This document shows positions 4,252 through 47,330 of a DNA stretch of 64,000 bases, one piece after another (position 1 is the first letter of the stretch; every line of letters begins with the position of its first letter). The position numbers and the translations under genes are program-made. The notes below the pieces were generated by a model. That model searched no databases and had not been told where the DNA came from. It worked only from the letters and a program-made list of their open reading frames with translations. This stretch comes from Patescibacteria group bacterium (GTDB lineage: Bacteria; Patescibacteriota; Patescibacteriia; UBA1558; GWA2-36-10), in the NCBI GenBank assembly GCA_041665505.1, contig JBAYIR010000001.1, positions 147,108-211,107 on the forward strand, given 5' to 3'.

Positions 4252-4280
4252 TTGACAAATTTTTTGTTATATGATATAAT
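4252..4280 (+). promoter_or_regulatory. Sigma-70-type promoter (TTGACA-17-TATAAT) driving the GC-rich cassette 1 ORF
   Basis: TTGACA lies at 4252-4257, followed by a 17-nt AT-rich spacer and TATAAT at 4275-4280. A 10-bp perfect hairpin in the 5' UTR (TGACCAATAC/GTATTGGTCA) lies at 4329-4354. The RBS GGAGGA sits 7 nt upstream of the ATG at 4409. Confidence 0.55.
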
Positions 4281-4408
4281 AATACGTTCACTACTAAGGT
4301 GGGCTAATTGTGTCTTGTGACCAATACGCCTTAGTATTGGTCATTGAAATAGAGTTTAGTCGAAACACACGCAAGAGAGTCACTCGATAGAGAAGAAGGA
4401 GGAAAGTC

Positions 4409-6622
4409 ATGTATTTGGACAACCAGCAAAGGCTGGGAGAGTTCGGACTCTACCTGGGAGACACCTGGGGATGGGTCTGGCCGGAAATGATCCTGCCCAT
4501 CTTCGCCGTGGCAATTCTGCTCGGCTGGTGGATGGCAGCACTTCGTGTCAAACGTTTGGGAACGGCTGCCTTCAAAGGACAGGGCGGCTTCTGGAACTTC
4601 GCCATCAAGCGGGCGGCTGGTTTGGTCGCCACTGGACTGTTCGGGCTCATCATCCTGGTCAGTGTCCAGTACTTCGGTCAGGAGCGAGTAGCCAAGCACC
4701 ACGACCTGTGGGCTTGGCAAATCAAGGAATTCATCCCCATGCTCAAGGGTGTGGCAGTCGGGGAAGACTCGACTGTTGTCGCGCTTGAAGCCGAGAAGTA
4801 CTACGTCGTTGGCGATGATGAAGAAATTCCCGAGGGCTACTCGCGTGAGTCCTGGGAGAAGTTCATCAATCGGCCGGTTGGTGCCATTGAAGGCACCTTG
4901 GGTCGGCATACCCAGCCTAGGACCTTTGGCAAGGAAAGGGTATATAGGGGTGGTCACCCGCGTTGGTGGGTGGATCCTATCTCCTTGTTTATCCTGCTGT
5001 TGCTCTTGACACAAGTCTTGGGCAAAAGTGGTAAGATTTGGCTCTTCGGTCGCTACATTTGGGGCGTGGTGGTGGTACTGTATCTGATACTGTACCTGAC
5101 ACTCCGTCCTTGGCTCCAAGGTCAGGTGGATTTTTGGAGCCTCACACTGGTCATAAATTTGCTCCAGCTGTGTGTGGTGGCTTTGGTACTGCCTCTGGCC
5201 TGCAGGAAGTTGGTGTGGATGTTGAAGAACAGGCAATGCGTGGTTACTATTGATCCGATCGAAAAGCAGCCCATGGCCTACACTGGGCAGATGTTTTTCG
5301 GTCTGGGGATTGGTACATTTATTGCCTTCACCAGCATTTTCTTCGTGCTCTTGCTTTTTCCTGCAGACATCATCAAGTTGGGTGGGTCCATCCGGACGCG
5401 CTTGATTTACTTGGTGCTGCAGGTGCTTGCCACTGGAGCTTTCTTCTTCTTGACCCAACTGGAGCGGGTTAAGCAGAAGATTATGATTGAGATTCCTCGG
5501 CGTGTCAGTTTGATCGCTGGTGGGATCTTGAGCATCCTGGCTTTTGCCTTGCCGGGTGTCTGGCTTTTCCTGTTCTTGCTGATTTTGATGATCTTGGTTT
5601 ATGAGCTTGGTGCTAATTATCAAGTGCCGATTGCTCATAAGCTGGTTATTGAAATCTTCAAGAAGGATCGCTATGATCCCTGGATTTTCCTCTGGCAGAA
5701 AGAGACCAACCGTATGGCCTCAACATATGGTTGTCTCAAGACTATGTTGAGGGAGGGGCTTCACATTACGCTGGTGGCGATGTGGGCTCCGTGGCTTAGG
5801 GTGTTTGTTTTCGTCGAGGAAATCCTCGAAGTTAACAAATACAAAGTGGATGAGCCTTTGGCTACCAGCAGTGTGCCCTGTAAATTCGAAACCGACGACC
5901 AAGGTCGTTTGATTGAGATTCTGACGGATGGGGAGGGTGTTTCTACTGGGCCGCCAGTGGAGTTTTTCGTGAGTCAACGCTTTGGGATGTACCACGATCC
6001 ACGGCTCTTCCTGCGTCTGTCGCTGGAAGATAGGCGTGATCCAACGGGGCTTCTGAAGCGCGATACTCAGAACCACTTGGCTCGTCTGACGCGCAAGCTT
6101 GGTATGAACCAAGCACTGATCGGAAGTTACTACACTTCCGAGGCCCATTTCTTCTTCTTTGACGGTCCGGGCACAGAGCCTATGACTTTTCCGCAGCTCC
6201 TGCGTCGTGGCTCTATGCGAGTTGTTGGTTTCTTGGAGATGAGCACAGAGCTTTCCGACGGCAATCCTCCTCCCGGCCTTGAGGCTTCCCAGATCGAGCT
6301 GGAGAAAGCTAAGATCGATCTGGAGACCGAGCGGTTGAGAGCGGAGATGGCTGTCATCAAGAAGAAGGCTGAAGGCACTGGCGCCAAGGAGATGATCGAA
6401 GAGATCGAAAAGGCTCTTCAGAAGGGAGCCTCTGCTTTGGCGGCGTCTGAATGGCTCCAGGTCATGGAGCTGGTCAAGAGTGATGCCGTCAAGTGGTTAC
6501 TGCCTTCTGGTCTGATTGACCGCTTGGGCGGTCTGGGTGATGTAGCTCGGCGGCTTGGGGTTAGTGCTCCGACGACGCCAGCTGCTCCGACCTCACCGCC
6601 GGCTCCGCCGGCTGGCGACTAA
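4409..6622 (+). CDS. Hypothetical polytopic membrane protein (about 9 TM helices) with a C-terminal coiled-coil soluble domain and a Pro/Ala-rich tail, in high-GC cassette 1
   Basis: The 737-aa ORF is about 55-60% GC by eye against a roughly 30% background. It has a strong RBS, and a hairpin plus T-run terminator lies downstream. Multiple hydrophobic helices are present, for example ILPIFAVAILLGWWMAAL and SLIAGGILSILAFALPGVWLFLFLLILMILV. The C-terminal region reads ...IELEKAKIDLETERLRAEMAVIKKKAEG... No family is recognised. Confidence 0.6.
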   Translation: MYLDNQQRLGEFGLYLGDTWGWVWPEMILPIFAVAILLGWWMAALRVKRLGTAAFKGQGGFWNFAIKRAAGLVATGLFGLIILVSVQYFGQERVAKHHDLWAWQIKEFIPMLKGVAVGEDSTVVALEAEKYYVVGDDEEIPEGYSRESWEKFINRPVGAIEGTLGRHTQPRTFGKERVYRGGHPRWWVDPISLFILLLLLTQVLGKSGKIWLFGRYIWGVVVVLYLILYLTLRPWLQGQVDFWSLTLVINLLQLCVVALVLPLACRKLVWMLKNRQCVVTIDPIEKQPMAYTGQMFFGLGIGTFIAFTSIFFVLLLFPADIIKLGGSIRTRLIYLVLQVLATGAFFFLTQLERVKQKIMIEIPRRVSLIAGGILSILAFALPGVWLFLFLLILMILVYELGANYQVPIAHKLVIEIFKKDRYDPWIFLWQKETNRMASTYGCLKTMLREGLHITLVAMWAPWLRVFVFVEEILEVNKYKVDEPLATSSVPCKFETDDQGRLIEILTDGEGVSTGPPVEFFVSQRFGMYHDPRLFLRLSLEDRRDPTGLLKRDTQNHLARLTRKLGMNQALIGSYYTSEAHFFFFDGPGTEPMTFPQLLRRGSMRVVGFLEMSTELSDGNPPPGLEASQIELEKAKIDLETERLRAEMAVIKKKAEGTGAKEMIEEIEKALQKGASALAASEWLQVMELVKSDAVKWLLPSGLIDRLGGLGDVARRLGVSAPTTPAAPTSPPAPPAGD

Positions 6623-6652
6623 ACATACTTCCCTCTCAGAGGGGAAACAACA

Positions 6653-6688
6653 CCGGGACGTTTGAAAGGGCGTCCCGGTTTTCTATTT
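6653..6688 (+). terminator. Intrinsic terminator of cassette 1
   Basis: An 8-bp stem CCGGGACG/CGTCCCGG with a 10-nt loop is followed by TTTTCTATTT. A small hairpin CCCTC-tca-GAGGG precedes it. Confidence 0.7.
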
Positions 6689-6711
6689 GCTAAAATCTGG
6701 ACTTATATTTA

Positions 6712-6745
6712 TCAATCAAAAAATCCGCTAGTTTAGCGGATTTAA
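6712..6745 (-). terminator. Intrinsic terminator of dus (overlaps its stop codon)
   Basis: On the minus strand, the hairpin AATCCGCTA-aac-TAGCGGATT is followed by TTTTTTG. The stop TAG lies inside the stem. Confidence 0.6.
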
Positions 6746-12129: not shown

Positions 12130-12229
12130 ATTTTTTAATTTATAATATTATAGTTTATTAAATCAGCTTTAGTCCGTTAAATCCCCTAAAAGTAGGTGAC
12201 TTTAAAAGAAAAGCATTTAACGGTGTAAA

Positions 12230-14033: not shown

Positions 14034-14062
14034 TTGACAAAAAATTTCATAAACTATAAAGT
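14034..14062 (+). promoter_or_regulatory. Promoter of cassette 2 unit a (TTGACA ... TATAAA)
   Basis: TTGACA at 14034-14039 is followed 15-17 nt later by TATAAA/TAAAGT. The RBS GGAGGA lies ahead of the ATG at 14129. Confidence 0.45.
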
Positions 14063-14128
14063 ATTTTAGCGTCCCTAGGCTCTTGATTCCTTCCCGCGTG
14101 TGACTCTCACTGAACTGGAGGACTTAGC

Positions 14129-14596
14129 ATGAGCAACATCGTAGGTAGTCCCTTGTTGCAGCGCATTACTGGCTGCTCAACCGACATTGCCACCGCCGCT
14201 CAGCAGGCGGTGGAGAGCCTAATGAAGCATCTTCAAGTTGGCACTTTGGTGCCTGGAAGCTGGAAGCTCTACTGGGCGCCGGAGTACTACAAGGACCCCA
14301 AACTTGAGTACGCTAGTGTCTTTAAGGTAGAGATCATTCTGACCATTCAGGCTCAGGCGGGTAGCCTCCCGCCACAGGACTCGCGGCAGTGGTTCGTAAG
14401 CGAGATCATCGCCTCTGATGATCGTAGCGACAGAGCCATGATGGCCGCCGTGCAGCAGGCTACTGCTGTGATGGTCGAGCACGGCCTCAACGAGAATGAG
14501 TGTCAGAGTCTCATTCTCTGCTACACCAAGGACAACAAGGTCTACTGCTCCTTCTGGCTGTTCTACTACGCCGAGCAGGAAGTGGACTGTCACTGA
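14129..14596 (+). CDS. Hypothetical 155-aa protein (high-GC cassette 2)
   Basis: The ORF is GC-rich and has a GGAGGA RBS with a 7-nt spacer. It is followed by the terminator GGAGGCAGCAC-tgcg-GTGCTGCCTCC. No family is recognised. The antisense ORF 14219-14593 is judged spurious. Confidence 0.5.
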   Translation: MSNIVGSPLLQRITGCSTDIATAAQQAVESLMKHLQVGTLVPGSWKLYWAPEYYKDPKLEYASVFKVEIILTIQAQAGSLPPQDSRQWFVSEIIASDDRSDRAMMAAVQQATAVMVEHGLNENECQSLILCYTKDNKVYCSFWLFYYAEQEVDCH

Positions 14597-14623
14597 GTTT
14601 TGATCCCTCAGCGGATCGTTTTA

Positions 14624-14658
14624 GGAGGCAGCACTGCGGTGCTGCCTCCTGCCTTTTA
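14624..14658 (+). terminator. Intrinsic terminator of cassette 2 unit a
   Basis: An 11-bp stem with a 4-nt loop is followed by TGCCTTTTA. Confidence 0.65.
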
Positions 14659-14693
14659 CTTAATTTTAATTATAGTATTTTGTGTTTATTTAG

Positions 14694-14721
14694 TTGACAA
14701 AAAACTTATTTTAGGTTAATT
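14694..14721 (+). promoter_or_regulatory. Promoter of cassette 2 unit b (TTGACA-16-TTAATT)
   Basis: TTGACA lies at 14694-14699. The -10 element is weak. Confidence 0.35.
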
Positions 14722-14778
14722 TCTTTGGGCTTAGTGTTATTTCACAGTTGACTAGGACTCCAACGAAAGGATTCGAGC

Positions 14779-15093
14779 ATGTCCAAGCGTATGGTGGTTG
14801 TTCAACACAGCCATGTTATTGGAGTGTGTTCTGGTACCGTCAGAGTTGAGCGTCTGGAAAATGCTCAGACTGGCGTCCGTTTCAGGTTGAAGATTGGCAG
14901 TGAGCGTTCTGTCAGTAGCCCTGACATCGCAGAGCTGACCAGCTGTCTCAAAGACCAGGTCTTTGCTCGCCGTGTGAGCCAGGCTTTTACTATGGAGGCG
15001 CCGACTATTTCTTCTCTTCGACCAATGCTTCCCAAGTTCAAGGTGAAGTTCTTAGCCACGAAGGCTCGCCGTGACGAGGATCTGTTCGATTAA
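14779..15093 (+). CDS. Hypothetical 104-aa protein (high-GC cassette 2)
   Basis: The ORF is GC-rich with an AGGA RBS. No family is recognised. Confidence 0.45.
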   Translation: MSKRMVVVQHSHVIGVCSGTVRVERLENAQTGVRFRLKIGSERSVSSPDIAELTSCLKDQVFARRVSQAFTMEAPTISSLRPMLPKFKVKFLATKARRDEDLFD

Positions 15094-15115
15094 ATGTAAA
15101 AAATGGAGGAACTCC

Positions 15116-15343
15116 GTGCCTAAAATCAGCCTGGCCAAGGCTGATCCTATCCGTCAGCAGATACTATTGGTGGTTGAGTCTTGGCCCAAGGCAGAAGGCG
15201 AATGCAAGCCGAGCGCGGTTTGCTGTTTGGTCGCTGAAACTGGTGCGGCTAGCTATGGCGATTGCGCCCAGCAAGTGGCTATCCTTTTGCAACAAGGAGA
15301 ACTGAAAATAGAGCCTCAGCAAAGAGGGCTCTACGTTCCGTGA
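15116..15343 (+). CDS. Hypothetical 75-aa protein (high-GC cassette 2), GTG start
   Basis: A perfect GGAGGA lies 5 nt upstream of the GTG at 15116. The ORF-track start at 15071 would overlap the preceding ORF. The terminator follows immediately. Confidence 0.4.
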   Translation: MPKISLAKADPIRQQILLVVESWPKAEGECKPSAVCCLVAETGAASYGDCAQQVAILLQQGELKIEPQQRGLYVP

Positions 15344-15345
15344 GA

Positions 15346-15380
15346 GGGGCTTCGGGAAACCGAAGCCCCTTAACTTTTTT
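15346..15380 (+). terminator. Intrinsic terminator of cassette 2 unit b
   Basis: GGGGCTTCGG-gaaa-CCGAAGCCCC is followed by TTAACTTTTTT. Confidence 0.75.
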
Positions 15381-21988: not shown

Positions 21989-22015
21989 AAATTTCATTAA
22001 AGCAGCTTTAAAATA
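21989..22015 (+). repeat. Direct repeat copy 2 (relic pyrG 3' end, reads NFIKAALK*)
   Basis: AATTTCATTAAAGCAGCTTTAAAATAA lies immediately after the 204-aa ORF stop. The terminator hairpin follows at 22022-22044. Confidence 0.7.
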
Positions 22016-22021
22016 AATTAA

Positions 22022-22044
22022 ACACTCCGAAAGGGGTGTTTTTT
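22022..22044 (+). terminator. Intrinsic terminator (probably the ancestral pyrG terminator)
   Basis: ACACTCC-gaaa-GGGGTGT is followed by TTTTT. Confidence 0.65.
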
Positions 22045-22115
22045 ATGGTATATTGTATATTTGTTAGTAGTCGTAGTATAATTATTACTATAATAATTAA
22101 ATTAAGGAGGTAAAT

Positions 22116-28699: not shown

Positions 28700-28705
28700 T
28701 AAATT

Positions 28706-28888: not shown

Positions 28889-28890
28889 TT

Positions 28891-30678
28891 ATGACCGAAA
28901 GAGAATTATTACAACAAAAGGAGAACCATATTCTCAAACTTGAAAAAGAAATTGAGAAATGGAAAAAAGCAGTTAAAACTCAAAGATATGGTTTAGTATG
29001 GCTTGATGTGCCCGAAGCGTTTGAAGATGATGTTGAGAACAAATTGCCAATTCTTGAGGAAGTACCTAAAAAAGCTATAAAAAGTATAGACGAAAAACCT
29101 ACACATTTACTCATTGAGGGAGATAACTATCACGCACTTACTTGTTTGAATTACACACACAAAGGAAAGATAGATGTTATTTATATAGACCCACCATACA
29201 ACACGGGTTCGGATGGTTTTAGATATAAAGATAAAAGGATATTAGACCAATATCCCGATGGTACTGAAGTACCAAAAGACCATCCTTTTAGGCATAGCTA
29301 CTGGTTGTCTTTTATGAGTAAAAGATTGGAACTCGCAAAAAGTTTATTAAAAGATACTGGAACTATATTTATTTCAATTAACGAAGACGAATTCGCACAA
29401 CTAAAGTTACTTTGTGACAGAATTTTTGGTCTAGAAAATTATTTGACAATGTTTACTATTAAAGTACGGCACGAGGAGCGTATTCTCAAGGGGGATAAAG
29501 ATTTTCACGAGGTGGTTGAATATCTTTTATTGTACAGAAATTCATCTAACTATAAAACTATAAAAAAAATATATGATAATACTTCTCTAGATGAATATGT
29601 ATATCAGATTATTGAAAAAATAAAAAAACCTAAATCAGTTAAGCTTGGAAATAAAATAGTTGAGTATTTTGAACCATCGCAATATGAAATAAAAAAAGTT
29701 CCAGCAAGTGCAGATAATTTGAAAAAAATAAACATTCGGGGTTCTTTGAAAGAAGGAAATAGTAGTGGCAGATTTTATATGAATTATATCGCTTCTAGGG
29801 GCACTAAGGGAGTGTTGTATAAAGTGCCTAATATGGGAGCGGATAAGTTTGGTTATAGGTATTTTTTGATACCAGCTAAGGAAAATAGATTAAATGGAGA
29901 TTATTTTCAAGGCGTGCCTTTAGATATACAAGATACCAAAGAAGTGCCATATCCTAACTATTTTGACCTTGAAAAAGAGTTTAATAATGTTGGATATGAG
30001 GGAGGTGTTAATTTTGGAGGTGGAAAGAAACCTATAGATTTCCTTAGGCATTTTATTAACATTGGCTCTTTAAATAAAGATGCAATCATATTAGATTTTT
30101 TTGCTGGTTCAGGAAGTACAGGGCACGCAGTTATGCAGATGAATGAAGATGATGAAGGTCATAGGCAGTTCATTTTAGTCACAAATAATAATGAAATTGT
30201 AAAAGATAAAGTTTACCACCCAATGTCTGAAGCGTGTCTACCAAGAATAAAGAATGTGATTAAGGGTTATGATAAAAATCCAAGTTTGGGAAATTCAATC
30301 AAATACTATAAAACTTCTTTTGTTGGTAAACATAACATTCTTGATGCGGATGATAAGGATAAAATACAACTTGCTCATCACGCAGGCGAAATGCTTGCAA
30401 TAGCTGAAAATACCTTAGAGCAAATAAAGAAAAACGACTATTGGCAGATATTTGAAAATACAAACAGAATGACAGCTATATATTTCCGAGAAGAACAAGA
30501 TAGACTTGATGAATTTGTGAAAGAAGTTTTAGCACTCAAAAAACCAGTAACGGTGTATATGTTTAGTTGGGAAGAAAAGGTTGAAATTATCGATTTTGAA
30601 GACATTCACAACATAAGCCTAAAAACTATACCTCAGCCAATTCTTGAAATATATAAGCAGATATATAACATTATTTAG
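28891..30678 (+). CDS. mod: Type III R-M DNA methyltransferase (Mod, N6-adenine/N4-cytosine beta-class)
   Basis: The DPPYNTGSD motif (motif IV) precedes FFAGSGSTGHA (motif I), the circularly permuted order typical of Mod. The gene is followed by a Res helicase gene. Confidence 0.8.
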   Translation: MTERELLQQKENHILKLEKEIEKWKKAVKTQRYGLVWLDVPEAFEDDVENKLPILEEVPKKAIKSIDEKPTHLLIEGDNYHALTCLNYTHKGKIDVIYIDPPYNTGSDGFRYKDKRILDQYPDGTEVPKDHPFRHSYWLSFMSKRLELAKSLLKDTGTIFISINEDEFAQLKLLCDRIFGLENYLTMFTIKVRHEERILKGDKDFHEVVEYLLLYRNSSNYKTIKKIYDNTSLDEYVYQIIEKIKKPKSVKLGNKIVEYFEPSQYEIKKVPASADNLKKINIRGSLKEGNSSGRFYMNYIASRGTKGVLYKVPNMGADKFGYRYFLIPAKENRLNGDYFQGVPLDIQDTKEVPYPNYFDLEKEFNNVGYEGGVNFGGGKKPIDFLRHFINIGSLNKDAIILDFFAGSGSTGHAVMQMNEDDEGHRQFILVTNNNEIVKDKVYHPMSEACLPRIKNVIKGYDKNPSLGNSIKYYKTSFVGKHNILDADDKDKIQLAHHAGEMLAIAENTLEQIKKNDYWQIFENTNRMTAIYFREEQDRLDEFVKEVLALKKPVTVYMFSWEEKVEIIDFEDIHNISLKTIPQPILEIYKQIYNII

Positions 30679-30679
30679 T

Positions 30680-33055
30680 ATGAAAAACTTTAACCCATTA
30701 CAATTTCAAAAAACTGCCGTAGAAAATCTTACAGATATATTTATTTCGGTATGGAAGCAACAAGGCAGGCAATTGCCCATTGTTTTGAAATCACCAACTG
30801 GAAGTGGTAAAACGTTTATAACATCACTTTTTGTTCGTGGCCTTAACCATTTACCACAATGGAAAGAAGATAAGGCATTTATTTGGATTACTTTTAGTGA
30901 TGATTTGGCTATGCAGAGCAAAGGAAAATTTCTTGAGTATTTTGAAAATATGCTTGAAAATAGAACTTTAACTGTTGCAGATATAAATCAAGGCAAACTT
31001 TATCCAAATGATATTTTATTCTTGAACTGGCAAAAAGTAATAGCAAAAAATGCAGAGACAAGATTAATTCGTCGTCCAGAAGATGAGGAATGGGCAAAAG
31101 AAACTGGTAAGTACTTTGAAGATGTGATTGAACAAACTCAAGCAGATGGTAGACAAATCATTTTAATTATTGATGAAGCTCATAAAAATAAAGATACAAA
31201 ACTAGCAAAGGACATTATTGATAAAATTGACCCTAAAGTAATTCTTCACATTACAGCAACACCAAATGAAGCGGACGAGCTAAATTCTCGCCGTCTTGGT
31301 AGTTATTATGAAGTTCCAAGAAAAGAGGTAGTTGAGCAAGGGCTAATCAAAGAAGCGATTGTCACTCAAACAGAAGAAGATTTTCAGGGTATGTCAGGCA
31401 AAGACCTTGATGAAATTCTTCTTGAAAATGGAATAAATAAACGAGAAGAGTTAAAAGCCGAATTTAGTGCACTTGGAAAAAATATAAATCCCTTGATGTT
31501 GATACAGATACCAAATGATGATAGTAAACTAATTGAAAAAGGTGAACAAACAAAGGAAGAAATTGTTATAGATTATCTTATTAAGATGAAAGTGCCTAAA
31601 CATAAAATTGCCAAATGGTCTAAGGGACAAGATAAACCAAAAGGACTAGAAGACAATGATGATGAACACGATTTTCTTATTTTTAAACAAACTGCTGGTA
31701 CTGGTTGGGATTGTCCTCGTGCATCTGTACTTGTGATGTTTAGAGAAATACAATCAAATACTTTTTATACTCAAACGGTTGGACGTATTTTGAGAATGCC
31801 AGAACCTCAAGCTAGGGAAGATTATAAAAATAATCCTAATCTTCGCTTGGGTTATTTATATACAAATTATAAACGTAAGGAAGTGGTTATACCAGACCAA
31901 AATCCTGCAAATAAACCACTAACAGAAACTGCCCATCGGAAAAATGGTATAAATAATATAGAGTTATCTTCAGATTATATCTCTCGTTTGGACTACGGTG
32001 ATATTCGCGTATCATCAAAATTTCAAGAGGTATTTAAAACAGAGCTTAATAAACATTTTGGAATTACAAGTAGTGATATTTTAGGTAAAGCTGAAATAAA
32101 GTTAAAAAAAGCAGGCTTAGACCTGACAGATACTTTAGTAAATGAAGTTATAGCCAATGCTCGTTTTGAGGATTACGACAATCTCGCCTTTGATTTTAAA
32201 AAGAAAGGTAGCGATGTTTCTCTTGAAATGTCGGTAAGTGATATTGAAAAAACTTTTAATTATCTTTGTTACCAAATTTTAAAAGAACAAGAAGATAGTA
32301 AGGCTAAATACTCAAATGTTGCTCGTTCTTGGTCGGTGCTAAAACAAGCACTTCGTGTTTGGTTTAAAACTGTTTTAAAAGATGACCATATTTATTGGTA
32401 TAAGATATTTATTAAAGATGTTCGTAAGGGTGCAGAAAGTAAATTTCGTCCAGCAATAACAAAAGCACTTAGAGCTTATAAACCAATATCAGACAGTTTG
32501 CTTGTTGAAAAGAAAAGGAAAGTGGAAGAAAAAGAGTCATATATTTTTACCATACAGAATGAGTATCAATACCCAGAAGATTATAAGATTGTGCCTCAAA
32601 AATTATGTGTCTTAGATAAATTTTATTTACCCGAAGATTATAATGGGCGTAAAAATGAAATTGCTTTTGTTGAGTATCTAGAAAAGAAGAAAGGGAAGAT
32701 TGATTGGTGGTTCAAAAACGGCAATCAAGGTAAAAAATATCTTGGTATTAAATATACAAACTCATCCACAAAAGAAGAAGACTTGTTTTACCCTGATTGG
32801 ATTATTAGTTTTTCAGATGGTCGTATAGGTATTTTTGATACAAAAAAGGGTAATACATTGTTCGATTTTGGAACACCAGAAAAGGCAGATGCACTACAAA
32901 AAAAACTTAGGGTATTTGGCAAAAAGTTTATAGGTGGCATTGCCTACCAAGAAGGAGTTATTTGGTATTACAATGACAGTCCAAAATACTCTTTTAAGGA
33001 AGGAGAATCAGTAAATGACAATAAGCAATGGAAGCCTTTTGAAGATTTATTTTAA
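30680..33055 (+). CDS. res: Type III restriction enzyme Res subunit (SF2 helicase/nuclease)
   Basis: Walker A (PTGSGKT) and a DEAH box (IIDEAHKN) are present. The protein is large and lies downstream of mod. The start is moved to the ATG at 30680. Confidence 0.75.
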   Translation: MKNFNPLQFQKTAVENLTDIFISVWKQQGRQLPIVLKSPTGSGKTFITSLFVRGLNHLPQWKEDKAFIWITFSDDLAMQSKGKFLEYFENMLENRTLTVADINQGKLYPNDILFLNWQKVIAKNAETRLIRRPEDEEWAKETGKYFEDVIEQTQADGRQIILIIDEAHKNKDTKLAKDIIDKIDPKVILHITATPNEADELNSRRLGSYYEVPRKEVVEQGLIKEAIVTQTEEDFQGMSGKDLDEILLENGINKREELKAEFSALGKNINPLMLIQIPNDDSKLIEKGEQTKEEIVIDYLIKMKVPKHKIAKWSKGQDKPKGLEDNDDEHDFLIFKQTAGTGWDCPRASVLVMFREIQSNTFYTQTVGRILRMPEPQAREDYKNNPNLRLGYLYTNYKRKEVVIPDQNPANKPLTETAHRKNGINNIELSSDYISRLDYGDIRVSSKFQEVFKTELNKHFGITSSDILGKAEIKLKKAGLDLTDTLVNEVIANARFEDYDNLAFDFKKKGSDVSLEMSVSDIEKTFNYLCYQILKEQEDSKAKYSNVARSWSVLKQALRVWFKTVLKDDHIYWYKIFIKDVRKGAESKFRPAITKALRAYKPISDSLLVEKKRKVEEKESYIFTIQNEYQYPEDYKIVPQKLCVLDKFYLPEDYNGRKNEIAFVEYLEKKKGKIDWWFKNGNQGKKYLGIKYTNSSTKEEDLFYPDWIISFSDGRIGIFDTKKGNTLFDFGTPEKADALQKKLRVFGKKFIGGIAYQEGVIWYYNDSPKYSFKEGESVNDNKQWKPFEDLF

Positions 33056-33058
33056 TTT

Positions 33059-34654
33059 ATGAAAGCAATAAATGTCTCAAGAGTATCAACCGAAGAACAA
33101 AAAGAAGCTGGTAATTCTTTGCCTGCTCAGATTGAACGTGTAGACGCTTATTGTAAGAGAAAAGATTTTGAAGTTATTAAATCTTTTAGTTTTGATGAAA
33201 GTGCTTATAAAGATAAGCGAGATGAGTTTGATAAACTACTTGAGTATGTTCAAAAAATAGCCACAAAGGAAAAGGTGGCTGTTTGTTTTGATAAAGTAGA
33301 CAGACTTTCAAGAAGTGTATTTGATAAGAGAGTTGCCGTATTTTATCAAATGGCTTTAGAAGATAAAATAGAGTTGCATTTTGTTTCAGACAATCAAATC
33401 ATAAACGGAAAATTATCGGCAACAGAAAAAAGTGGATTTGGTATGAGCCTTGTAATGGCTAGTTACTATTCAAATGCAATAAGTGATAATGTTAAGAGAG
33501 CATTTGAGCAAAAAAGACGTAATGGAGAATGGACAGGGCAAGTACGCTTAGGGTATTTAAACGTTAGTTTAGACCAAGCAAAAAGATTACGCAAAGACAT
33601 TATCATAGACCCAGACAAAGGGCATCTTATACAGAAAATGTTTGAACTCTATGCTACTGACCAATACTCTTTGAAAACCTTGCAAATTAAAATTAGTGAG
33701 CTTGGTTTGAGAACTCGCTATGGAAATAAACTTTCATTAAGTGGCATAGAAAAAATCATTAAGGACAGTTTTTATTGTGGTATTGCTATGTCAACAAAGT
33801 ATGGTTCTTATGCCCATAAATATCCTCGTTTAATATCAAGAGAACTCTTTGATAAGTGCCAACAGATACGCACCAAACGCAATAAAATGCCCTATAAGGC
33901 ACACTCTAAGGACTTTATGCTAAAAGGCCTGTTAAGATGTAATAATTGTGGTTGTTTAATGAGCCCTCAAAAACAGACTAAGAAAAGTGGACTTGAATTT
34001 ATCTATTATACTTGTACGAATGCCAAAGGTATATGCAAAAAAATATATATACCAGAAAAAGACCTTTTAAAACCAATCTATGATGTTTTAGAAAGATTTG
34101 AGAGTATAAGTGAGGAAGTACAGAATGGTCTTGTTGAGGAATTACGCAAATGTACCGAAATAGAAGTAGTATTTCATAAGGCACAAATAAATCGTATTCG
34201 AACAGATTATGATAATTTAAAAGCGAAGCAAAATAGACTTCTTGATGCATTTTTAGACCAGAGTATTACTAAGGACATCTATGACAAGAAACATCAAGAG
34301 TATCAAGACCAAATACAAACTTTAGAAATTGAAATGTCTGAACATCAGAAAGCAGATTTTGATTACAAAACTACTGTCGCTACAGTCATTTCCGTAGCAC
34401 GCAGAGCAAAAACTATATTTGAAAATAGTTCTGAAGTTGCTGGAAAAAGAACATTTTTGAGTTACATACTTCAGAACCCGATTGTAACAGGTAGAATACT
34501 TACCTTTGACCTCAAAAAACCCTTTGATTTAGTGCTAAGTCTTGCTGATAACCAAAGAAAAAAGACTATCGTTTCTGATAGTCATCTTTCTTGGCTCGGG
34601 GACAGGGATTCGAACCCCGGTTGGCTGGACCAAAACCAGCTGTCCTACCACTAG
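33059..34654 (+). CDS. Large serine recombinase (integrase)
   Basis: The N-terminal resolvase domain carries the catalytic Ser (NVSRVSTEEQ). A recombinase domain, a zinc ribbon (CNNCGC...YYTC) and a coiled coil follow. The last roughly 63 nt overlap the tRNA-Gln on the opposite strand. Confidence 0.85.
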   Translation: MKAINVSRVSTEEQKEAGNSLPAQIERVDAYCKRKDFEVIKSFSFDESAYKDKRDEFDKLLEYVQKIATKEKVAVCFDKVDRLSRSVFDKRVAVFYQMALEDKIELHFVSDNQIINGKLSATEKSGFGMSLVMASYYSNAISDNVKRAFEQKRRNGEWTGQVRLGYLNVSLDQAKRLRKDIIIDPDKGHLIQKMFELYATDQYSLKTLQIKISELGLRTRYGNKLSLSGIEKIIKDSFYCGIAMSTKYGSYAHKYPRLISRELFDKCQQIRTKRNKMPYKAHSKDFMLKGLLRCNNCGCLMSPQKQTKKSGLEFIYYTCTNAKGICKKIYIPEKDLLKPIYDVLERFESISEEVQNGLVEELRKCTEIEVVFHKAQINRIRTDYDNLKAKQNRLLDAFLDQSITKDIYDKKHQEYQDQIQTLEIEMSEHQKADFDYKTTVATVISVARRAKTIFENSSEVAGKRTFLSYILQNPIVTGRILTFDLKKPFDLVLSLADNQRKKTIVSDSHLSWLGDRDSNPGWLDQNQLSYH

Positions 34655-34665
34655 ACGATCCCCGA
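34592..34665 (-). tRNA. tRNA-Gln (anticodon UUG)
   Basis: The minus-strand read is TCGGGGATCGTCTAGTGGTAGGACAGCTGGTTTTGGTCCAGCCAACCGGGGTTCGAATCCCTGTCCCCGAGCCA. It has a 7-bp acceptor stem (U1-A72), an anticodon stem GCTGG/CCAGC with loop TTTTGGT, a T-loop TTCGAAT, discriminator G and an encoded CCA. Confidence 0.8.
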
Positions 34666-34795
34666 ATATTGTATAAAACAAAAAAATTATAGTATATATT
34701 TAATTTTTAGTCAATGGAAAGAGGACCCCGAGACGCTATGTAGCATCATGTATTCGGGGCCCCCTTGTCGGTCAGCTGGTTGTCCTAGCTAGTAG

Positions 34796-35029
34796 CTAGT
34801 CCAGCCAGCTATCGCCGGTCGGATCGCAGCAGTTGTCTTCCATCATGATCTGCCAGATGCAGATCCAACCGAAGCGGTTGAAGCCGAACTCGAGTGCCAG
34901 GTCGCATCCCCAGGGCATGAGCCCACCGGCGTGGGCAGTCCGGGGCACCGTGGCGATACCCAGAGCCGTGATCAGGGTAATGGTCGCGAGGACCCTCCCG
35001 ATCTTCTTTTTCAGGCTTTTCGGAAACAT
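34796..35029 (-). CDS. Small secreted Cys/Trp-rich peptide precursor (77 aa; predicted 43-aa mature peptide)
   Basis: A Sec-type signal peptide (MFPKSLKKKIGRVLATITLITALGIATVPRTAHA|GG) is present. The mature part GGLMPWGCDLALEFGFNRFGWICIWQIMMEDNCCDPTGDSWLD contains 4 Cys. An RBS-like GAGGG lies 5 nt upstream. The gene sits in high-GC cassette 3. Confidence 0.45.
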   Translation of the reverse strand: MFPKSLKKKIGRVLATITLITALGIATVPRTAHAGGLMPWGCDLALEFGFNRFGWICIWQIMMEDNCCDPTGDSWLD

Positions 35030-35110
35030 GGTTTCCCTCTCTGTGGGGTGTGGTGTTGTGGCTGTTTACCACAACAAGTTAGCCGGAGTCTTATCCTCCT
35101 CTCTGGTAAA

Positions 35111-35776
35111 CTATTTGAAGTCTACCTTGACACGGTGATCTTCCACCACCAGTTTGTCTGTGGTGGTTACCCTCAAAACCTCCATGCCGAAGTAGGAGCT
35201 TGGTAGCCTCACCAGAACCACGTTAGGCAGGTCGGGTGAAGCACCTTTGTTGAACTTGTTGTCCATTCTGACTGGACCATCGCGGGTGTCTTTCCAATCA
35301 TCGGACGGACGATGTTTCTTGATGCAGATGATGCCGATATCCGGTACCTGGATTTCGCTGCCATCACCACCTCTGATGGTAAAGATCAATGCTCCAACCT
35401 CGTTGAAGAGTAGGTCAACTTGGTCAGGAATATACACACCAAGCCTGTAGACTATGACCTGCTCGCGTGCCAATGTGGCACTCAATTTGAGACTGGGTAT
35501 CTCATCGACCATGATTTCAAGCTGCTCTTTGATAAACTCTACCCGTTCTTCTCGTTGTAGTCTACGACCTCTTTGCCTTTCTTCTATTTGGATGGCCGTG
35601 CCAAGTTGAGGTTTCAGGTTATCGATGGGCCTGCTCCAGCTTTCATTGTAGCCAGAGAAGATCAGGACACCATCAGGAGTCTGGTTGATAGGAACGAAGT
35701 TGGCCTTGGCTTGTGCAACTGTGCTAGCGAGTAGCATCAGGCCGAGACACGCGAGAAACATGAATGTGTTTCGCAT
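35111..35776 (-). CDS. Hypothetical secreted protein (221 aa, Sec signal)
   Basis: The signal peptide MRNTFMFLACLGLMLLASTVAQA is present. The ORF is GC-rich. Its start overlaps the upstream stop (TAATG), so it is translationally coupled to the lipoprotein gene. Confidence 0.55.
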   Translation of the reverse strand: MRNTFMFLACLGLMLLASTVAQAKANFVPINQTPDGVLIFSGYNESWSRPIDNLKPQLGTAIQIEERQRGRRLQREERVEFIKEQLEIMVDEIPSLKLSATLAREQVIVYRLGVYIPDQVDLLFNEVGALIFTIRGGDGSEIQVPDIGIICIKKHRPSDDWKDTRDGPVRMDNKFNKGASPDLPNVVLVRLPSSYFGMEVLRVTTTDKLVVEDHRVKVDFK

Positions 35777-36057
35777 TAGCGATTACCTCTCTGCGGGTTA
35801 GGGTTCTTCGCATCCAGATTCTTGGTGTTGAAGACCGAGTTCTGGACTCTTGCTTCTGCATCAGCAATAGCTTCGCAACGCCAGGTGCCGTCTTTGTTGA
35901 CACACCGGTAGCTCTTACCATCTACAACGAAGACCTTGGTACTGTCAGGGATGACAGTGGTGTCACGAAACTGTGGGTGGTAGCTGTAACCACAACCAGT
36001 GATTAAGACCAGCATCAGGATGACGCCGATCAATTTGACGACGATTTTTTCAAACAT
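35776..36057 (-). CDS. Hypothetical lipoprotein (93 aa)
   Basis: A lipobox LITGC follows the hydrophobic N-terminus. A strong RBS AAGGAGG lies 6 nt upstream of the ATG. The gene is first in the operon. Confidence 0.55.
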   Translation of the reverse strand: MFEKIVVKLIGVILMLVLITGCGYSYHPQFRDTTVIPDSTKVFVVDGKSYRCVNKDGTWRCEAIADAEARVQNSVFNTKNLDAKNPNPQRGNR

Positions 36058-36139
36058 GCGGCGCCTCCTTAGTGGCGTTTTGCTTGGCGTTTTGCTCTTA
36101 CTGCGATTCGTGTTGTTAGAGAACTGTTATGCTAATTTC

Positions 36140-36190
36140 ATTATACATAAAATAACACTTAATTCAAGTATATTTCTTTATTTTTGTCAA
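36140..36190 (-). promoter_or_regulatory. Promoter region for the lipoprotein operon (minus strand): TTGACA, then TTGAAT-16-TATAAT
   Basis: On the minus strand, TTGACAAAAATAAAGAAATATACTTGAATTAAGTGTTATTTTATGTATAAT is present. A roughly 75-nt leader contains the tandem 11-bp repeat GCAAAACGCCA x2. Confidence 0.45.
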
Positions 36191-36202
36191 TAGATAAGTT
36201 AT

Positions 36203-36285
36203 GAAAATAAAGGTGGGGCTCGTCACACAACTGGGGGGAGTGTTGAAGTGACGAGCCCCGGTCTGCCCTCTAGGGGCAGTTTTTT
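36203..36285. terminator. Bidirectional intrinsic terminator between the two cassette-3 transcription units
   Basis: A 12-bp stem GGGGCTCGTCAC...GTGACGAGCCCC (36215-36259) is followed on the minus strand by ACCTTTATTTTC. On the plus strand, CTGCCC-tctag-GGGCAG is followed by TTTTTT (36263-36285). Confidence 0.6.
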
Positions 36286-36334
36286 GGTAGCTCTATACAG
36301 CTACGCAAGAGAAGACAATAAGACTAGTGTCTGG

Positions 36335-36400
36335 CTACTTCCTGAGCCACCAGAACAGATCCAGGAGCGCCAGCCCCATGAAGATCACTTCGTAATGCAT
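36335..36400 (-). CDS. Putative 21-aa hydrophobic micro-protein (MHYEVIFMGLALLDLFWWLRK)
   Basis: A perfect SD AAGGAGGTG lies 5 nt upstream of the ATG. One predicted TM helix. It sits between the receiver-like gene and the terminator. It is not in the ORF track because it is under 60 aa. Confidence 0.3.
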   Translation of the reverse strand: MHYEVIFMGLALLDLFWWLRK

Positions 36401-36449
36401 TATGCCACCTCCTTTCATACAATGGGAGTCTCACCCCCCAGTTGTATGA

Positions 36450-36854
36450 TCAGTGGTTGGCCATGCTCAACTGGTGAACGTAGTCAACCAGACGACCGAC
36501 ATTGAGCGGTTTGGGCATACAGAAGACCCCATACTCGCTCATCAGCCGTTCGATCTTGGTGTTGGGGTAGCGGTGGCTCATAGCCAGGGTGGTGATGTGC
36601 ACGCCAGCAGAGGTGAGAATCTCCATGAACCTCTCACTGTCGACATCCAGACACTCGATGATGATCACGTCAGGCAGAGGATCCCAGTTCAGCATCTTGC
36701 GGATCACCTTCGTGGTGTCGAGTTGAGCTCTGTAGATCTGGCCGTCAACCTGCTCGATGTTGGTCAGGACTTCATGTCCTTCGGACTCCAGGCCAAAGGC
36801 CATGGTCATGGCCGTATCCGGGTCGCTGTCGAAGATGAAAACGCGCTTCTTCAT
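36450..36854 (-). CDS. Stand-alone CheY-like receiver (REC) domain protein, atypical
   Basis: The N-terminal acidic pair is VFIFDSDPD. A KP motif (FCMPKPL) and a Thr (HITTLA) occupy the expected positions. The phospho-acceptor position appears to be Glu in DVIIIE (alignment by eye). An RBS AGGAG is present. The plus-strand ORF 36453-36872 is judged an antisense artefact. Confidence 0.4.
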   Translation of the reverse strand: MKKRVFIFDSDPDTAMTMAFGLESEGHEVLTNIEQVDGQIYRAQLDTTKVIRKMLNWDPLPDVIIIECLDVDSERFMEILTSAGVHITTLAMSHRYPNTKIERLMSEYGVFCMPKPLNVGRLVDYVHQLSMANH

Positions 36855-36875
36855 GGTTTTGCTCCTAGCTGAAGT

Positions 36876-36943
36876 GTCGGTTACGCTACTGGCTCAGGAT
36901 TGTCCAAGCGTCCAAATACAGACAATCCGTCTTCGCCTCACTC
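36876..36943 (+). repeat. Cassette-3 direct repeat copy A (about 67 bp, internal 7-bp dyad GATTGTC-N16-GACAATC)
   Basis: GTCGGTTACGCTACTGGCTCAGGATTGTCCAAGCGTCCAAATACAGACAATCCGTCTTCGCCTCACT. It lies 22 nt 5' of the REC gene start when read on the minus strand. Confidence 0.7.
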
Positions 36944-36974
36944 AGTCTCTCCTGTGTCGCCGATGAAGCTGATT

Positions 36975-37145
36975 TCAGTCAGACAGGCCTTTCTGTAGGG
37001 CTTTGGCCAGTTCATCTTCGTTCAGGTGACGCGTCGCAAACCTGACCTGCCGATACAATACCTTGGTATCGTAGTCCAGGTTTTCGTTGAGCCGGGCAAT
37101 GTGCTCTTGCACAATCTTGATATTCCGCCGGTGTTGGGGGCTCAT
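36975..37145 (-). CDS. Hypothetical 56-aa protein (MSPQHRRNIKIVQEHIARLNENLDYDTKVLYRQVRFATRHLNEDELAKALQKGLSD)
   Basis: An RBS AGGGAG lies 11 nt upstream of the ATG. The ORF-track start at 37178 is rejected. It is preceded by repeat copy B and an extended -10 (TGTTATACT). Confidence 0.35.
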   Translation of the reverse strand: MSPQHRRNIKIVQEHIARLNENLDYDTKVLYRQVRFATRHLNEDELAKALQKGLSD

Positions 37146-37223
37146 AGTATTCACACTCCCTGTTTTTGGGTAACACAAAACACCTCAAAGAGGCGTTTTG
37201 GCTAAGTATAACACAGCAAAAGT

Positions 37224-37290
37224 GCCGGTTACGCTACTAGCTCCAGATTGTCCAAGCGTCCAGATACAGACAATCCTTCTTCGCCTCACT
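37224..37290 (+). repeat. Cassette-3 direct repeat copy B
   Basis: GCCGGTTACGCTACTAGCTCCAGATTGTCCAAGCGTCCAGATACAGACAATCCTTCTTCGCCTCACT. It is about 90% identical to copy A. Confidence 0.7.
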
Positions 37291-37387
37291 GCTTCTCTTA
37301 TTTTGGTAAAGAACTTAGTTTACAAAAAAATACCCTTTCAGGCATTTCTGTAAATTAAGCTCTCAATATTGAGATTTATTACGCAAT

Positions 37388-37454
37388 GCCGGTTACGCTA
37401 CTAGCTCCAGATTGTCCAAGCGTCCAGATACAGACAATCCTTCAAAGCCTCATT
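37388..37454 (+). repeat. Cassette-3 direct repeat copy C
   Basis: It is identical to copy B over the first 54 nt (GCCGGTTACGC...GACAATCCTTC), and the tail then diverges. It lies just downstream (on the minus strand) of the ZIP gene stop and a TTGACA motif at 37505-37510. Confidence 0.7.
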
Positions 37455-37514
37455 GAATGATATTTATTGTAAATTATTAATACCCTACCACATAATTTTT
37501 ATTTTGTCAAGACC

Positions 37515-46683: not shown

Positions 46684-46716
46684 TTATTTATATCAATTAT
46701 ATTAACAGGTTTCTGA

Positions 46717-46745
46717 TTGACAGAAAGCTGTTTTTTATTTATAGT
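46717..46745 (+). promoter_or_regulatory. Promoter of high-GC cassette 4 (TTGACA-17-TATAGT)
   Basis: TTGACA lies at 46717-46722 and TATAGT at 46740-46745. A hairpin in the 5' UTR (GAGAGAC-tgag-GTCTCTC) lies at 46782-46799. Confidence 0.55.
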
Positions 46746-46823
46746 AATCAAATTCGGATTTTTGTCCGGCCTTGTTCACTGGAGAGACTGAGGTCTCTCA
46801 AAACCATAGAAAGGAAGCCTAGG

Positions 46824-47042
46824 ATGGAATTTGGTCTCAAAGGTACTGGTTGGTATTTGATCTGCGATCAAGTACCGAAAGATGGCGGAGAGGGGGCTAG
46901 CAATCTCTTCTATCGCTTGAGTGTTCCGGTCGGGAGTAGTCAGTTGCGCTATGAGAAAGTAGCGCAACACGAAGCTCGTCGGATTTTGACCACACAAGCG
47001 GACCTGATCAAGGGTTATGTTGCCTGGATCACCACTCTGTAA
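46824..47042 (+). CDS. Hypothetical 72-aa protein (high-GC cassette 4)
   Basis: An RBS AAAGGAAG is present. The ORF is GC-rich. No family is recognised. Confidence 0.45.
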   Translation: MEFGLKGTGWYLICDQVPKDGGEGASNLFYRLSVPVGSSQLRYEKVAQHEARRILTTQADLIKGYVAWITTL

Positions 47043-47059
47043 CGCAGGAGGCTTGCTCT

Positions 47060-47260
47060 ATGGAACAGCTCTGGAAGGGCGCTTACATTGGTGCTAAGTG
47101 CCCCTATGAGGATTGTTCTGGTTTTGTGGGAGCTCATGATCCTGGTGGCTCTGAGCCGCATCAGCTTCGCTGTAGCGCGGAGCCCGAACACATGACCGAG
47201 ATCTCGGCCGACCGCTACTCCCAGCTTCAGCTGGAAGCTCGGTCTAGGGCCGAGGCCTAA
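47060..47260 (+). CDS. Hypothetical 66-aa protein with a Cys/His cluster (high-GC cassette 4)
   Basis: An RBS AGGAGG lies 8 nt upstream. The protein carries CPYEDC...H...C...H, which may bind metal. Confidence 0.45.
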   Translation: MEQLWKGAYIGAKCPYEDCSGFVGAHDPGGSEPHQLRCSAEPEHMTEISADRYSQLQLEARSRAEA

Positions 47261-47290
47261 GTCGTCCCATCAGGGATAAAGGCATTTTGG

Positions 47291-47330
47291 CCGCCGCCAC
47301 GTCAGACGTGGCGGCGGTTCTTTTATTTTA
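47291..47330 (+). terminator. Intrinsic terminator of cassette 4
   Basis: An 11-bp GC stem CCGCCGCCACG/CGTGGCGGCGG is followed by TTCTTTTATTTT. Confidence 0.8.

Follow-up and report, generated by a model that had tools for sequence, protein, structure and literature searches.

A 64-kb window of a contig from Candidatus Komeilibacteria, within the candidate phyla radiation (CPR; Patescibacteria), contains four tracts of 50–53% GC embedded in DNA of ~31% GC (the window is the whole stretch analysed, and coordinates follow its numbering unless a locus used for comparison, with an L-number, is named). These tracts, hereafter cassettes 1–4, comprise about six autonomous transcription units (1, 2a, 2b, 3a, 3b and 4). 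As read from the sequence, each appears to be built from a near-consensus sigma-70 promoter in AT-rich DNA, a GC-rich body starting from about +1, a strong Shine–Dalgarno (SD) site and a strong intrinsic terminator. We refer to such GC-rich, SD-led genes as class B and to the AT-rich, SD-less bulk as class A. The class B products are mostly related to the envelope or signalling (an SPFH scaffold, a lipoprotein, secreted proteins and a receiver-like protein), and in relatives they also include an HPRT enzyme. The interpretation that we favour, with about an even chance of being correct, is that class B is a clade-specific minority of structured, SD-dependent units kept GC-rich by selection on the transcript and shuffled by recombination. 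We infer transcript-level selection as the cause of the GC-richness and rank it first because the promoters, SD sites, terminators, depletion of internal SD-like motifs and folding of the sense strand are functional signals that neutral processes would not produce. The property selected would be a stable, RNase-resistant and heavily folded mRNA, on which an SD site would be needed for initiation, and homologous recombination anchored in the conserved flanks would move, replace and delete units among Komeilibacteria.

The GC content in 400-nt windows was ~0.26–0.38 in the background and ~0.44–0.57 in the four tracts. When tracts were called from 120-nt windows with GC ≥ 0.47, the only ones of at least 500 bp in the 64 kb were 4361–6720, 14061–15380, 34541–37300 (which takes in tRNA-Gln) and 46781–47360, and all remaining tracts were ≤ 260 bp. 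One short GC bump elsewhere originated from a class A bacterial RNase P RNA (60064–60445, minus strand; 218 bits). A preliminary description of this DNA had reported discrete GC steps, which this profile bears out. It had also placed the steps at start and stop codons; they proved as sharp as described, but the edges coincide with predicted transcription start sites (TSSs) and terminator stems instead. Change points were located at 14068 (predicted TSS near 14069), 46747 (end of the −10 element at 46745), and 6678, 15369 and 47317 (ends of terminator stems at 6679, 15371 and 47319, respectively). Consistent with these positions, GC was 0.17–0.25 over the ~80 nt upstream of each predicted start, 0.42–0.57 in the 5′ untranslated regions (5′UTRs), 0.51–0.52 in internal spacers of at least 80 nt and 0.51–0.59 in the 3′UTRs, as against 0.27 in the pooled host intergenic DNA.

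The open reading frames (ORFs) of the cassettes had a GC of 0.49–0.60 and a third-position GC (GC3) of 0.51–0.82, compared with 0.27–0.41 and 0.17–0.31 in host genes. They preferred CTG, ATC, AAC, TTC, TAC and AAG and strongly avoided A-ending codons. A large non-coding RNA posing as ORFs was rejected, as the periodicity (GC3 > GC1 > GC2) and the protein-level conservation indicate real coding; the only Rfam matches in the tracts were cyclic di-GMP (c-di-GMP)-II riboswitches. Long antisense ORFs in the tracts, such as that at 4331–5638 (minus strand), were dismissed as chance products of the high GC, their positions not being kept in orthologues. The features of the six units, with their coding sequences (CDSs), are as follows.

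4252–4280, plus strand: predicted unit 1 promoter, TTGACA-17-TATAAT with an extended −10 TG; 12/12 consensus match
4287–4408, plus strand: unit 1 5′UTR, GC 0.42; 11-bp hairpin at 4317–4344; SD AGGAGG, kept in orthologues
4409–6622, plus strand: gene X, 737 aa, polytopic membrane protein with a predicted C-terminal SPFH/Band-7 domain and coiled coil; GC 0.54, GC3 0.64
6652–6690, plus strand: unit 1 intrinsic terminator, 12-bp stem (6652–6679) and T-run; conserved in four genomes
14034–14062, plus strand: unit 2a promoter match, followed by the GC change point at 14068
14129–14596, plus strand: unit 2a CDS, 155 aa, family not recognised; GC3 0.72; SD GGAGG
14622–14651, plus strand: unit 2a terminator, 13-bp stem
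14694–14722, plus strand: unit 2b promoter-like site, TTGACA-17-TAATTT, in a 72-nt spacer of 17% GC; read from sequence
14779–15093, plus strand: unit 2b first CDS, 104 aa
15116–15343, plus strand: unit 2b second CDS, 75 aa, GTG start, SD GGAGG; called as a gene at L001 20708–20935
15344–15371, plus strand: unit 2b terminator
37378–37461, minus strand: c-di-GMP-II aptamer 1 in the unit 3a leader, Rfam 71.7 bits; promoter TTGACA at 37510–37505
37214–37297, minus strand: c-di-GMP-II aptamer 2, Rfam 65.2 bits
36975–37145, minus strand: unit 3a small CDS, 56 aa; GC3 ~0.66
36866–36948, minus strand: c-di-GMP-II aptamer 3, between two CDSs; Rfam 66.7 bits
36450–36854, minus strand: unit 3a CDS, 134 aa, putative receiver (REC)-like single-domain protein; GC3 0.77
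36335–36400, minus strand: mini-ORF MHYEVIFMGLALLDLFWWLRK, 21 aa, hydrophobic, perfect SD AGGAGG; 3′ of the receiver-like gene
36205–36259, minus strand: unit 3a terminator hairpin, GGGGCTCGTCAC...GTGACGAGCCCC and T-run; read from sequence
36140–36190, minus strand: unit 3b promoter region, 17% GC, TTGAAT-16-TATAAT after TG with TTGACA upstream; match at 36167–36140 (minus)
35776–36057, minus strand: unit 3b CDS, 93-aa predicted lipoprotein (LITGC lipobox), SD AGGAGG
35111–35776, minus strand: unit 3b CDS, 221-aa secreted protein, fold not recognised; six homologues
34796–35029, minus strand: unit 3b CDS, 77-aa Cys-rich protein with a signal peptide; GC3 0.82
34722–34764, minus strand: unit 3b terminator-like hairpin, directly upstream of the tRNA-Gln promoter; read from sequence
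46717–46745, plus strand: unit 4 promoter, TTGACA-17-TATAGT, with the −35 inside the RNase H terminator hairpin and the −10 straddling an indel junction
46824–47042, plus strand: unit 4 CDS, 72 aa, family not recognised
47060–47260, plus strand: unit 4 CDS, 66 aa, SD AGGAGG
47289–47319, plus strand: unit 4 terminator, 14-bp stem with 10 GC pairs

The unit 1 promoter was the best promoter match in the scanned region (12/12 with TG), and the strongest terminators of both scanned regions were unit ends (6652–6679, 14622–14651, 15344–15371 and 47289–47319). Units 2a and 2b are separated by the 72 nt of promoter DNA of 17% GC. The common architecture noted earlier, that is, a consensus promoter, SD site, GC-rich transcribed body and strong terminator set among SD-less, AT-rich host genes, was confirmed. 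A further unit of the same build lies on the same contig ~4.5 kb upstream of the first base of the window (L001 583–1075); it combines a TTGACA promoter with a GC-rich, GAGGAGG-containing leader, a 96-aa ORF (716–1006) and a long GC-rich terminator, and a short GC-rich structured segment is located just upstream of it (L001 ~350–560).

The agreement of the tract boundaries with transcript ends could also reflect a transcript-dependent process, such as A-to-G mutagenesis coupled to transcription, or copying of the mRNA by reverse transcription with subsequent conversion or insertion. Such a process fits the extent of the cassette-4 indel, which runs from about +1 to the terminator T-run, the invariance of the promoter and terminator of gene X around a diverged body, and the stronger depletion of A than of T at sense-strand third positions in most units. 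However, the window encodes no reverse transcriptase or deaminase (a Pfam match to RVT_3 corresponds to an RNase H domain), and the strand asymmetry is inconsistent, with C3 > G3 in the cassette 3 genes and A3 close to T3 in some genes; a uniform A-to-G asymmetry was rejected, as it differs from unit to unit. In addition, the synonymous divergence (dS) of X and 2a equals that of host genes between close strains, and both the SD sites and the excess folding are left unexplained. We consider this process very unlikely.

Translation signals separate the two gene classes. A GGAG/GAGG core was found for 8 of 11 cassette genes (9 of 11 with the GTG start at 15116) and for 1 of 36 host genes. In related loci totalling ~250 kb, the core was present ahead of 20 of 30 GC-rich ORFs and of 3 of 146 AT-rich ORFs; most of the misses among the 30 look like mis-called starts or antisense ORFs. 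Internal SD-like hexamers were depleted in the pooled GC-rich CDSs relative to synonymous shuffles (AGGAGG, 4 vs. 15.4; GGAGGC, 3 vs. 11.1); this depletion suggests that the ribosomal anti-SD is functional. GATAA, TATAA and TTAA were likewise depleted in these CDSs. The lone host exception with an SD core is the SIMPL-domain gene at 22116 (AGGAGG). Translational selection for highly expressed genes was rejected as a general cause, given that the ribosomal protein L27 and L9 genes are AT-rich and SD-less. The L27 gene (minus strand), which has no SD site upstream of 12129, is preceded by a leader of ~75–100 nt (12130–12228, minus strand) that separates an 11/12 promoter match (12257–12229) from its start; this segment had no Rfam match and could be a ribosomal-protein leader.

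The transcripts of several units are more strongly folded than their protein sequence and codon usage require, as judged in 120-nt windows against synonymous-codon shuffles that keep both. Gene X exceeded its shuffles in stability by 7 kcal/mol per window (z = −11.9), with z = −4.0 to −10.4 in six orthologues. A dinucleotide-shuffle control gave a mean z of −2.24 over 14 windows of X, all negative, as against −0.2 to −0.7 in host genes, and further shuffle folds of X regions yielded z of −2.8 and −3.3, none of the shuffles being as stable. The excess stability was about twice as large on the sense strand of the window copy of X as on the antisense strand, and ~1.6 times as large in L005 and L015; this sense-strand bias points to RNA rather than DNA. 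Against synonymous shuffles, z was −4.7 for 2a, −2.8 for the second gene of 2b and −3.0 for 4a. In relatives, all 11 GC-rich genes had negative z (mean −2.83), compared with a mean of −0.68 for AT-rich genes. The excess does not extend to the leaders, which as a whole were no more stable than shuffles; the 5′UTR hairpins previously described for cassettes 1 and 4 are present, but not as part of unusually stable leaders.

The persistence of gene X among relatives argues for maintenance of its composition. Orthologues or homologues with 26–44% amino acid identity are found at the identical Fpg-(SdpI)-[X]-Dus position in at least eight genomes (L003/L005, L006, L015/L016, L022/L023, L024/L025, L026 and L031), and all relatives with coverage of this site had X in synteny. 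All the X orthologues had GC3 of 0.51–0.77, whereas the adjacent core genes (Fpg, SdpI, Dus and CorA) had 0.20–0.31. Between the window and L005, L006 and L015, ~60 nt of promoter sequence are near-invariant and the terminator is nearly unchanged, around X proteins of ~40% identity. In the same comparisons, the neighbouring genes showed dS of 0.85–2.0 and nonsynonymous divergence (dN) of 0.09–0.19, while X reached dS ≥ 2 and dN ~0.6–0.7; against the more distant L026, dN was 0.48 for SdpI and 0.95 for X. Synonymous sites are therefore near or at saturation while X stays GC-rich. Under a simple two-state model in which host mutation bias sets a neutral GC3 of ~0.22 as the end point, the divergence from the closest strain (dS ~0.7) would already erase an estimated ~60% of the GC3 excess. 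On the basis of this persistence past near-saturated dS, together with the model estimate, the GC-richness of X is maintained and is not the residue of a recent import. The preliminary description had held that homologues in a like context in related AT-rich genomes would mark the cassette genes as native; such homologues exist for X, but they are equally GC-rich. In three of the distant relatives, X is followed before Dus by a conserved gene of 105–108 aa and then by one of 1220 to more than 1800 aa (L022 6990–11172, L024 2794–6795 and L026 7064–11923); both genes are AT-rich, and the window contains neither.

The other units differ in their distribution. Cassette 2 comprises the same units in the closest strain, L031, at 86% nucleotide identity, like its host genes. 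In L005, the cassette-2 slot carries a different GC-rich set consisting of a 249-aa protein, HPRT and, by eye, apparent counterparts of unit 2b, and in L004 it holds a GC-rich HPRT gene alone. The 111-aa ORF of L005 in the unit 2b slot is possibly related to the 104-aa protein, judging from a similar N-terminus, and the C-terminus of the 75-aa protein reads by eye as homologous to a 123-aa ORF of L005. L021 shares ~80% identity with the window in its host proteins and lacks cassettes 3 and 4; the junctions are precise, leaving ~60 bp between ZIP and tRNA-Gln and 62 bp between RNase H and holB. The cassette-4 indel (46684–46751 and 47320–47340 vs. L021 13690–13750) has low-complexity T-rich runs resembling TTTTATTTAT on both sides, which may represent microhomology. 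Unit 3b was found in L027, L028, L029 and L030, and its copy in L027 is 96.8% identical (dS 0.02–0.09), compared with ~88% (dS 0.4–0.8) for the flanking genes. Directly upstream, the receiver-like gene is swapped in L027 for a homologue of only 32% identity. Because of this contrast with both the flanks and the adjoining gene, the edge of unit 3b is a recombination breakpoint, and the GC-rich module was recently exchanged between lineages. Homologous recombination of this kind would produce presence/absence differences, deeply divergent alleles and recently shared copies. Polarised substitution counts in unit 3b, which are small and confounded by a clustered recombinant segment, were 10:2 for GC-to-AT over AT-to-GC changes on the window branch and near balance in the two directions for L027 (18:17) and L028 (41:37).

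These distributions bear on the possibility that the units are islets or moron-like imports, acquired by horizontal gene transfer (HGT) from one or more GC-rich, SD-using donors and partly ameliorated. Their composition, codon usage and SD use are atypical of the host, cassettes 3 and 4 are absent from L021, the content of the cassette-2 slot varies, cassette 3 adjoins tRNA-Gln and a recombinase island, and the 10:2 ratio on the window branch of unit 3b lies in the direction expected of amelioration. On the other hand, X is syntenic and GC-rich in at least eight genomes near or at synonymous saturation, where neutral amelioration would have erased its excess; the promoters are extremely AT-rich and conserved within the clade; and the neighbouring recombinase island is itself AT-rich and a separate element. 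Nor was any homologue found outside AT-rich, Komeilibacteria-like contexts in 1.84 billion representative proteins, IMG/VR, phage and plasmid sets, PHROGs or PADLOC. With all cassette proteins as queries, Pfam, PADLOC and PHROGs yielded no significant match other than Band_7, which was hit by relatives of X. The 221-aa, 134-aa and 155-aa proteins had no relatives in IMG/VR, X had no tblastn match among phages, and cassette 3 had no blastn match among plasmids. Homologues of the 221-aa and 155-aa proteins occurred only in the same kind of AT-rich context. We regard such imports as unlikely, and the same applies to simple HGT as the ultimate origin of the class and as the source of cassettes 3 and 4. 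The earlier proposal of horizontal acquisition accordingly fails as recent import for cassette 1 and unit 2b, and stands in part for cassettes 3 and 4, which are absent from L021, and for unit 3b, which has been exchanged.

No integrase or transposase is encoded inside any tract, as already noted in the preliminary description. Its further suggestion of a single family was not upheld: no shared recombination site, att-like motif, repeat or uptake sequence was found among the cassettes, k-mers of at least 11 nt gave only isolated matches, and there was no protein homology between cassettes. The indel junctions showed only low-complexity T-runs or promoter-like similarity, and the left end of cassette 3 aligns with the tRNA-Gln promoter as a possible duplication, both regions being of low complexity. 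The cassettes are bordered by housekeeping genes (SdpI, Dus, Vut_1, a PEGA-domain gene, ZIP, tRNA-Gln, RNase H and holB).

GC-biased gene conversion (gBGC) at recombination hot spots of the flexible genome, with the promoters held AT-rich by selection, would account for part of these observations. Recombination and mosaicism are directly evident, X evolves fast, the non-coding transcribed spacers are raised in GC as well, and the two-way substitutions in unit 3b are near balance in L027 and L028. Yet gBGC predicts neither the SD sites, consensus promoters and terminators nor the depletion of internal SD motifs and the folding of the sense strand, and it would leave the position of the tract ends, within a few nucleotides of the TSS or terminator, to coincidence. 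We know of no bacterial precedent for an effect as large as a shift from 30% to 55% GC, which also counts against this process, and a literature search returned no gBGC-like case of that size. We regard gBGC as unlikely to be the cause.

Several observations weigh against selection on the transcript as we propose it. All promoters and TSSs are predictions. The cassette 3 genes showed no significant folding signal (z = +1.3 to −1.8), and thus structure alone cannot account for every unit. Moreover, as the dS of X and 2a equals that of host genes between close strains, synonymous sites are not strongly conserved singly, and any selection must act on bulk properties. The 10:2 excess on the window branch of unit 3b also fits slow amelioration. 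Finally, the class could ultimately go back to, for example, an ancient import from an SD-using, GC-rich donor.

Chimeric assembly or engineered or contaminating DNA would be suggested at most by the resemblance of the units to textbook expression cassettes, which the preliminary description had read as possible recoding or engineering. The 737-aa X with the same flanks is also present in ENA ERZ27249449 (350-kb contig) and in an independent Logan assembly of SRR6484324, so that identical junctions are found in independent assemblies of different samples. In addition, orthologous GC-rich units occupy the same sites in metagenome-assembled genomes (MAGs) and contigs from several other studies. 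Because of these shared junctions and orthologous units, the window is a natural contig, chimeric assembly and engineering are excluded, and we assign an artefact virtually no probability. A scan of species-representative genomes with CorA placed the closest MAGs under the names Candidatus Komeilibacteria or Patescibacteria, and published Komeilibacteria genomes have 31–33% GC (PMC8241940). A further reading, that the units were built for expression in a GC-richer bacterium hosting this episymbiont, seems highly improbable.

Gene X is the best characterised product. Pfam Band_7 matched 5 of 10 members of the X family (best E = 3.8e-7), with the window protein itself below threshold, and a profile search of PDB with the family gave nothing useful by sequence. 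The AlphaFold2 (AF2) model of X had an overall predicted local distance difference test (pLDDT) score of 62, with 72–89 over most of residues 460–620. In a Foldseek search of this model against PDB, HflK/C was the top match (E = 2.5e-4, probability 1.0), and flotillin and stomatin came next. These matches identify X as a polytopic membrane protein with an SPFH/flotillin-like C-terminal domain and a coiled coil. The earlier statement that the products belong to no recognisable family thus does not hold for X, but it does for others such as the 155-aa and 72-aa proteins; the AF2 model of the 221-aa secreted protein (pLDDT 45) was too low in confidence to use. X resembles the SPFH/Band-7 proteins HflK/C, flotillin and stomatin in its C-terminal half, where the SPFH fold is followed by a long coiled coil. 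It differs from them in a variable, polytopic N-terminal region of ~400 aa and in belonging to a tiny, very fast-evolving family. Its relatives formed only 16 clusters among 1.84 billion representative proteins, and all eight contexts examined were AT-rich genomes.

Unit 3a combines two tandem riboswitches, the 56-aa ORF, a third riboswitch, the 134-aa gene, the 21-aa mini-ORF and a terminator, in this order. All three aptamers scored above the RF01786 gathering threshold of 53.5 bits and matched model positions 1–84. They are packed within 600 nt (36866–37461, minus strand), and their very similar sequences suggest recent duplication. L027 (8285–8595) has two aptamers, the second of which spans 144 nt, i.e. 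with an insertion of ~60 nt. As in known c-di-GMP-II operons, above-threshold aptamers accompany the genes, here upstream of and within unit 3a. What sets this unit apart is its CPR host, the tandem arrangement with one aptamer between two CDSs, and the receiver-like and small proteins encoded downstream. No report linking a c-di-GMP-II riboswitch to CPR bacteria was found in a literature search. The 134-aa protein itself had no Pfam match and appears receiver-like indirectly, through relatedness: it shares 32% identity with a 141-aa protein of L027/L028, and Response_reg was matched only by neighbouring operon genes in L030. L028 has a 55-aa ORF in the position of the 56-aa ORF, and in L027 the 141-aa gene has a small ORF in front of it. 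The mini-ORF is conserved in L027 with two differences in the first seven codons, both synonymous, and this pattern of conservation suggests that it is translated.

Cassette 3 adjoins tRNA-Gln and an AT-rich island with a large serine recombinase. This island (28891–34654, plus strand) encodes a type III restriction–modification system (Mod, 595 aa; Res, 803 aa) and the 531-aa recombinase, whose ORF overlaps at its 3′ end with tRNA-Gln on the opposite strand. It has the appearance of a mobile defence island in its own right that has integrated at tRNA-Gln. L021 lacks window positions 21374–37500 entirely and has a different 452-aa membrane protein instead. Elsewhere in the window, a 59-nt direct repeat of 90% identity (1367–1425 and 1478–1536) lies inside the gene for a large DUF4215-type surface protein (126–2552).

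Atypical GC content is a standard signature of HGT, and here an excess of 20–25 percentage points is limited to single transcription units. If selection on the transcript is indeed the cause, compositional HGT detectors would systematically mislabel a native CPR gene class, and the units would represent a natural bacterial case in which gene-specific base composition is set by mRNA-level function. They would also flag the proteins that ultra-small bacteria most need in robust supply, i.e. an SPFH scaffold, lipoproteins and secreted proteins, and regulators under c-di-GMP control. In the flexible genome of Komeilibacteria, the units also mark hot spots of recombination. No earlier account of such units, persistently GC-rich and led by SD sites, in CPR genomes emerged from literature searches. 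We tentatively propose, while doubting it more than we believe it, that two mRNA classes exist in each cell, an AU-rich, SD-less, weakly folded bulk and a GC-rich, SD-dependent, hyper-structured minority; perhaps other CPR bacteria have them too. On this reading, the minority would form a regulon defined by RNA chemistry, for instance of messages that outlast RNases or dormancy or are initiated by a route of their own, and selection on transcripts, not transfer, would make the islands.

The units share features with several known systems. Phage morons, in the concept of Hendrix and Juhala, are single genes or small operons with their own promoter and terminator and an atypical composition. The units described here are likewise autonomous, inserted precisely between two resident genes, unlike their neighbours in composition and variable in presence. 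Unlike morons, they lie in a CPR chromosome between housekeeping genes and have no PHROG, phage or IMG/VR relatives, at least one of them is conserved and syntenic across the clade, and the difference in composition is maintained rather than transient. Genomic islands are similar in their sharp compositional break, in the location of one tract by a tRNA gene and in the variable content of a slot. In contrast to islands, no integrase of their own, flanking repeats or donor was found, the GC-richness outlasts synonymous saturation, and the promoters are host-like. By distribution, cassettes 3 and 4 (absent from L021) behave as islands would, whereas cassette 1 is present wherever the site is covered and unit 2b occurs in L031 and, by eye, seemingly in L005. 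Integron cassettes differ in that the units share no attC motif and have no intI, and their 3′ hairpins are ordinary terminators with T-runs.

Closer parallels concern expression. In Streptomyces, bldA and its TTA codon provide regulation by codon class. Class B similarly constitutes a minority of genes with codons rare in the genome, which in principle could tie their expression to a particular state of the translation machinery, but as a mirror image, with GC-rich codons in an AT-rich genome and with all codons and the UTRs involved. The ompA and S-layer transcripts are long-lived, highly expressed mRNAs with 5′ stabiliser hairpins and strong terminators. They resemble the units in the consensus promoter, 5′ hairpin, strong SD site, strong terminator and heavily folded message, although here the whole transcript is shifted by ~20–25 GC points and thereby defines a gene class. 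By analogy with these transcripts, the units likely act through a stabilised mRNA.

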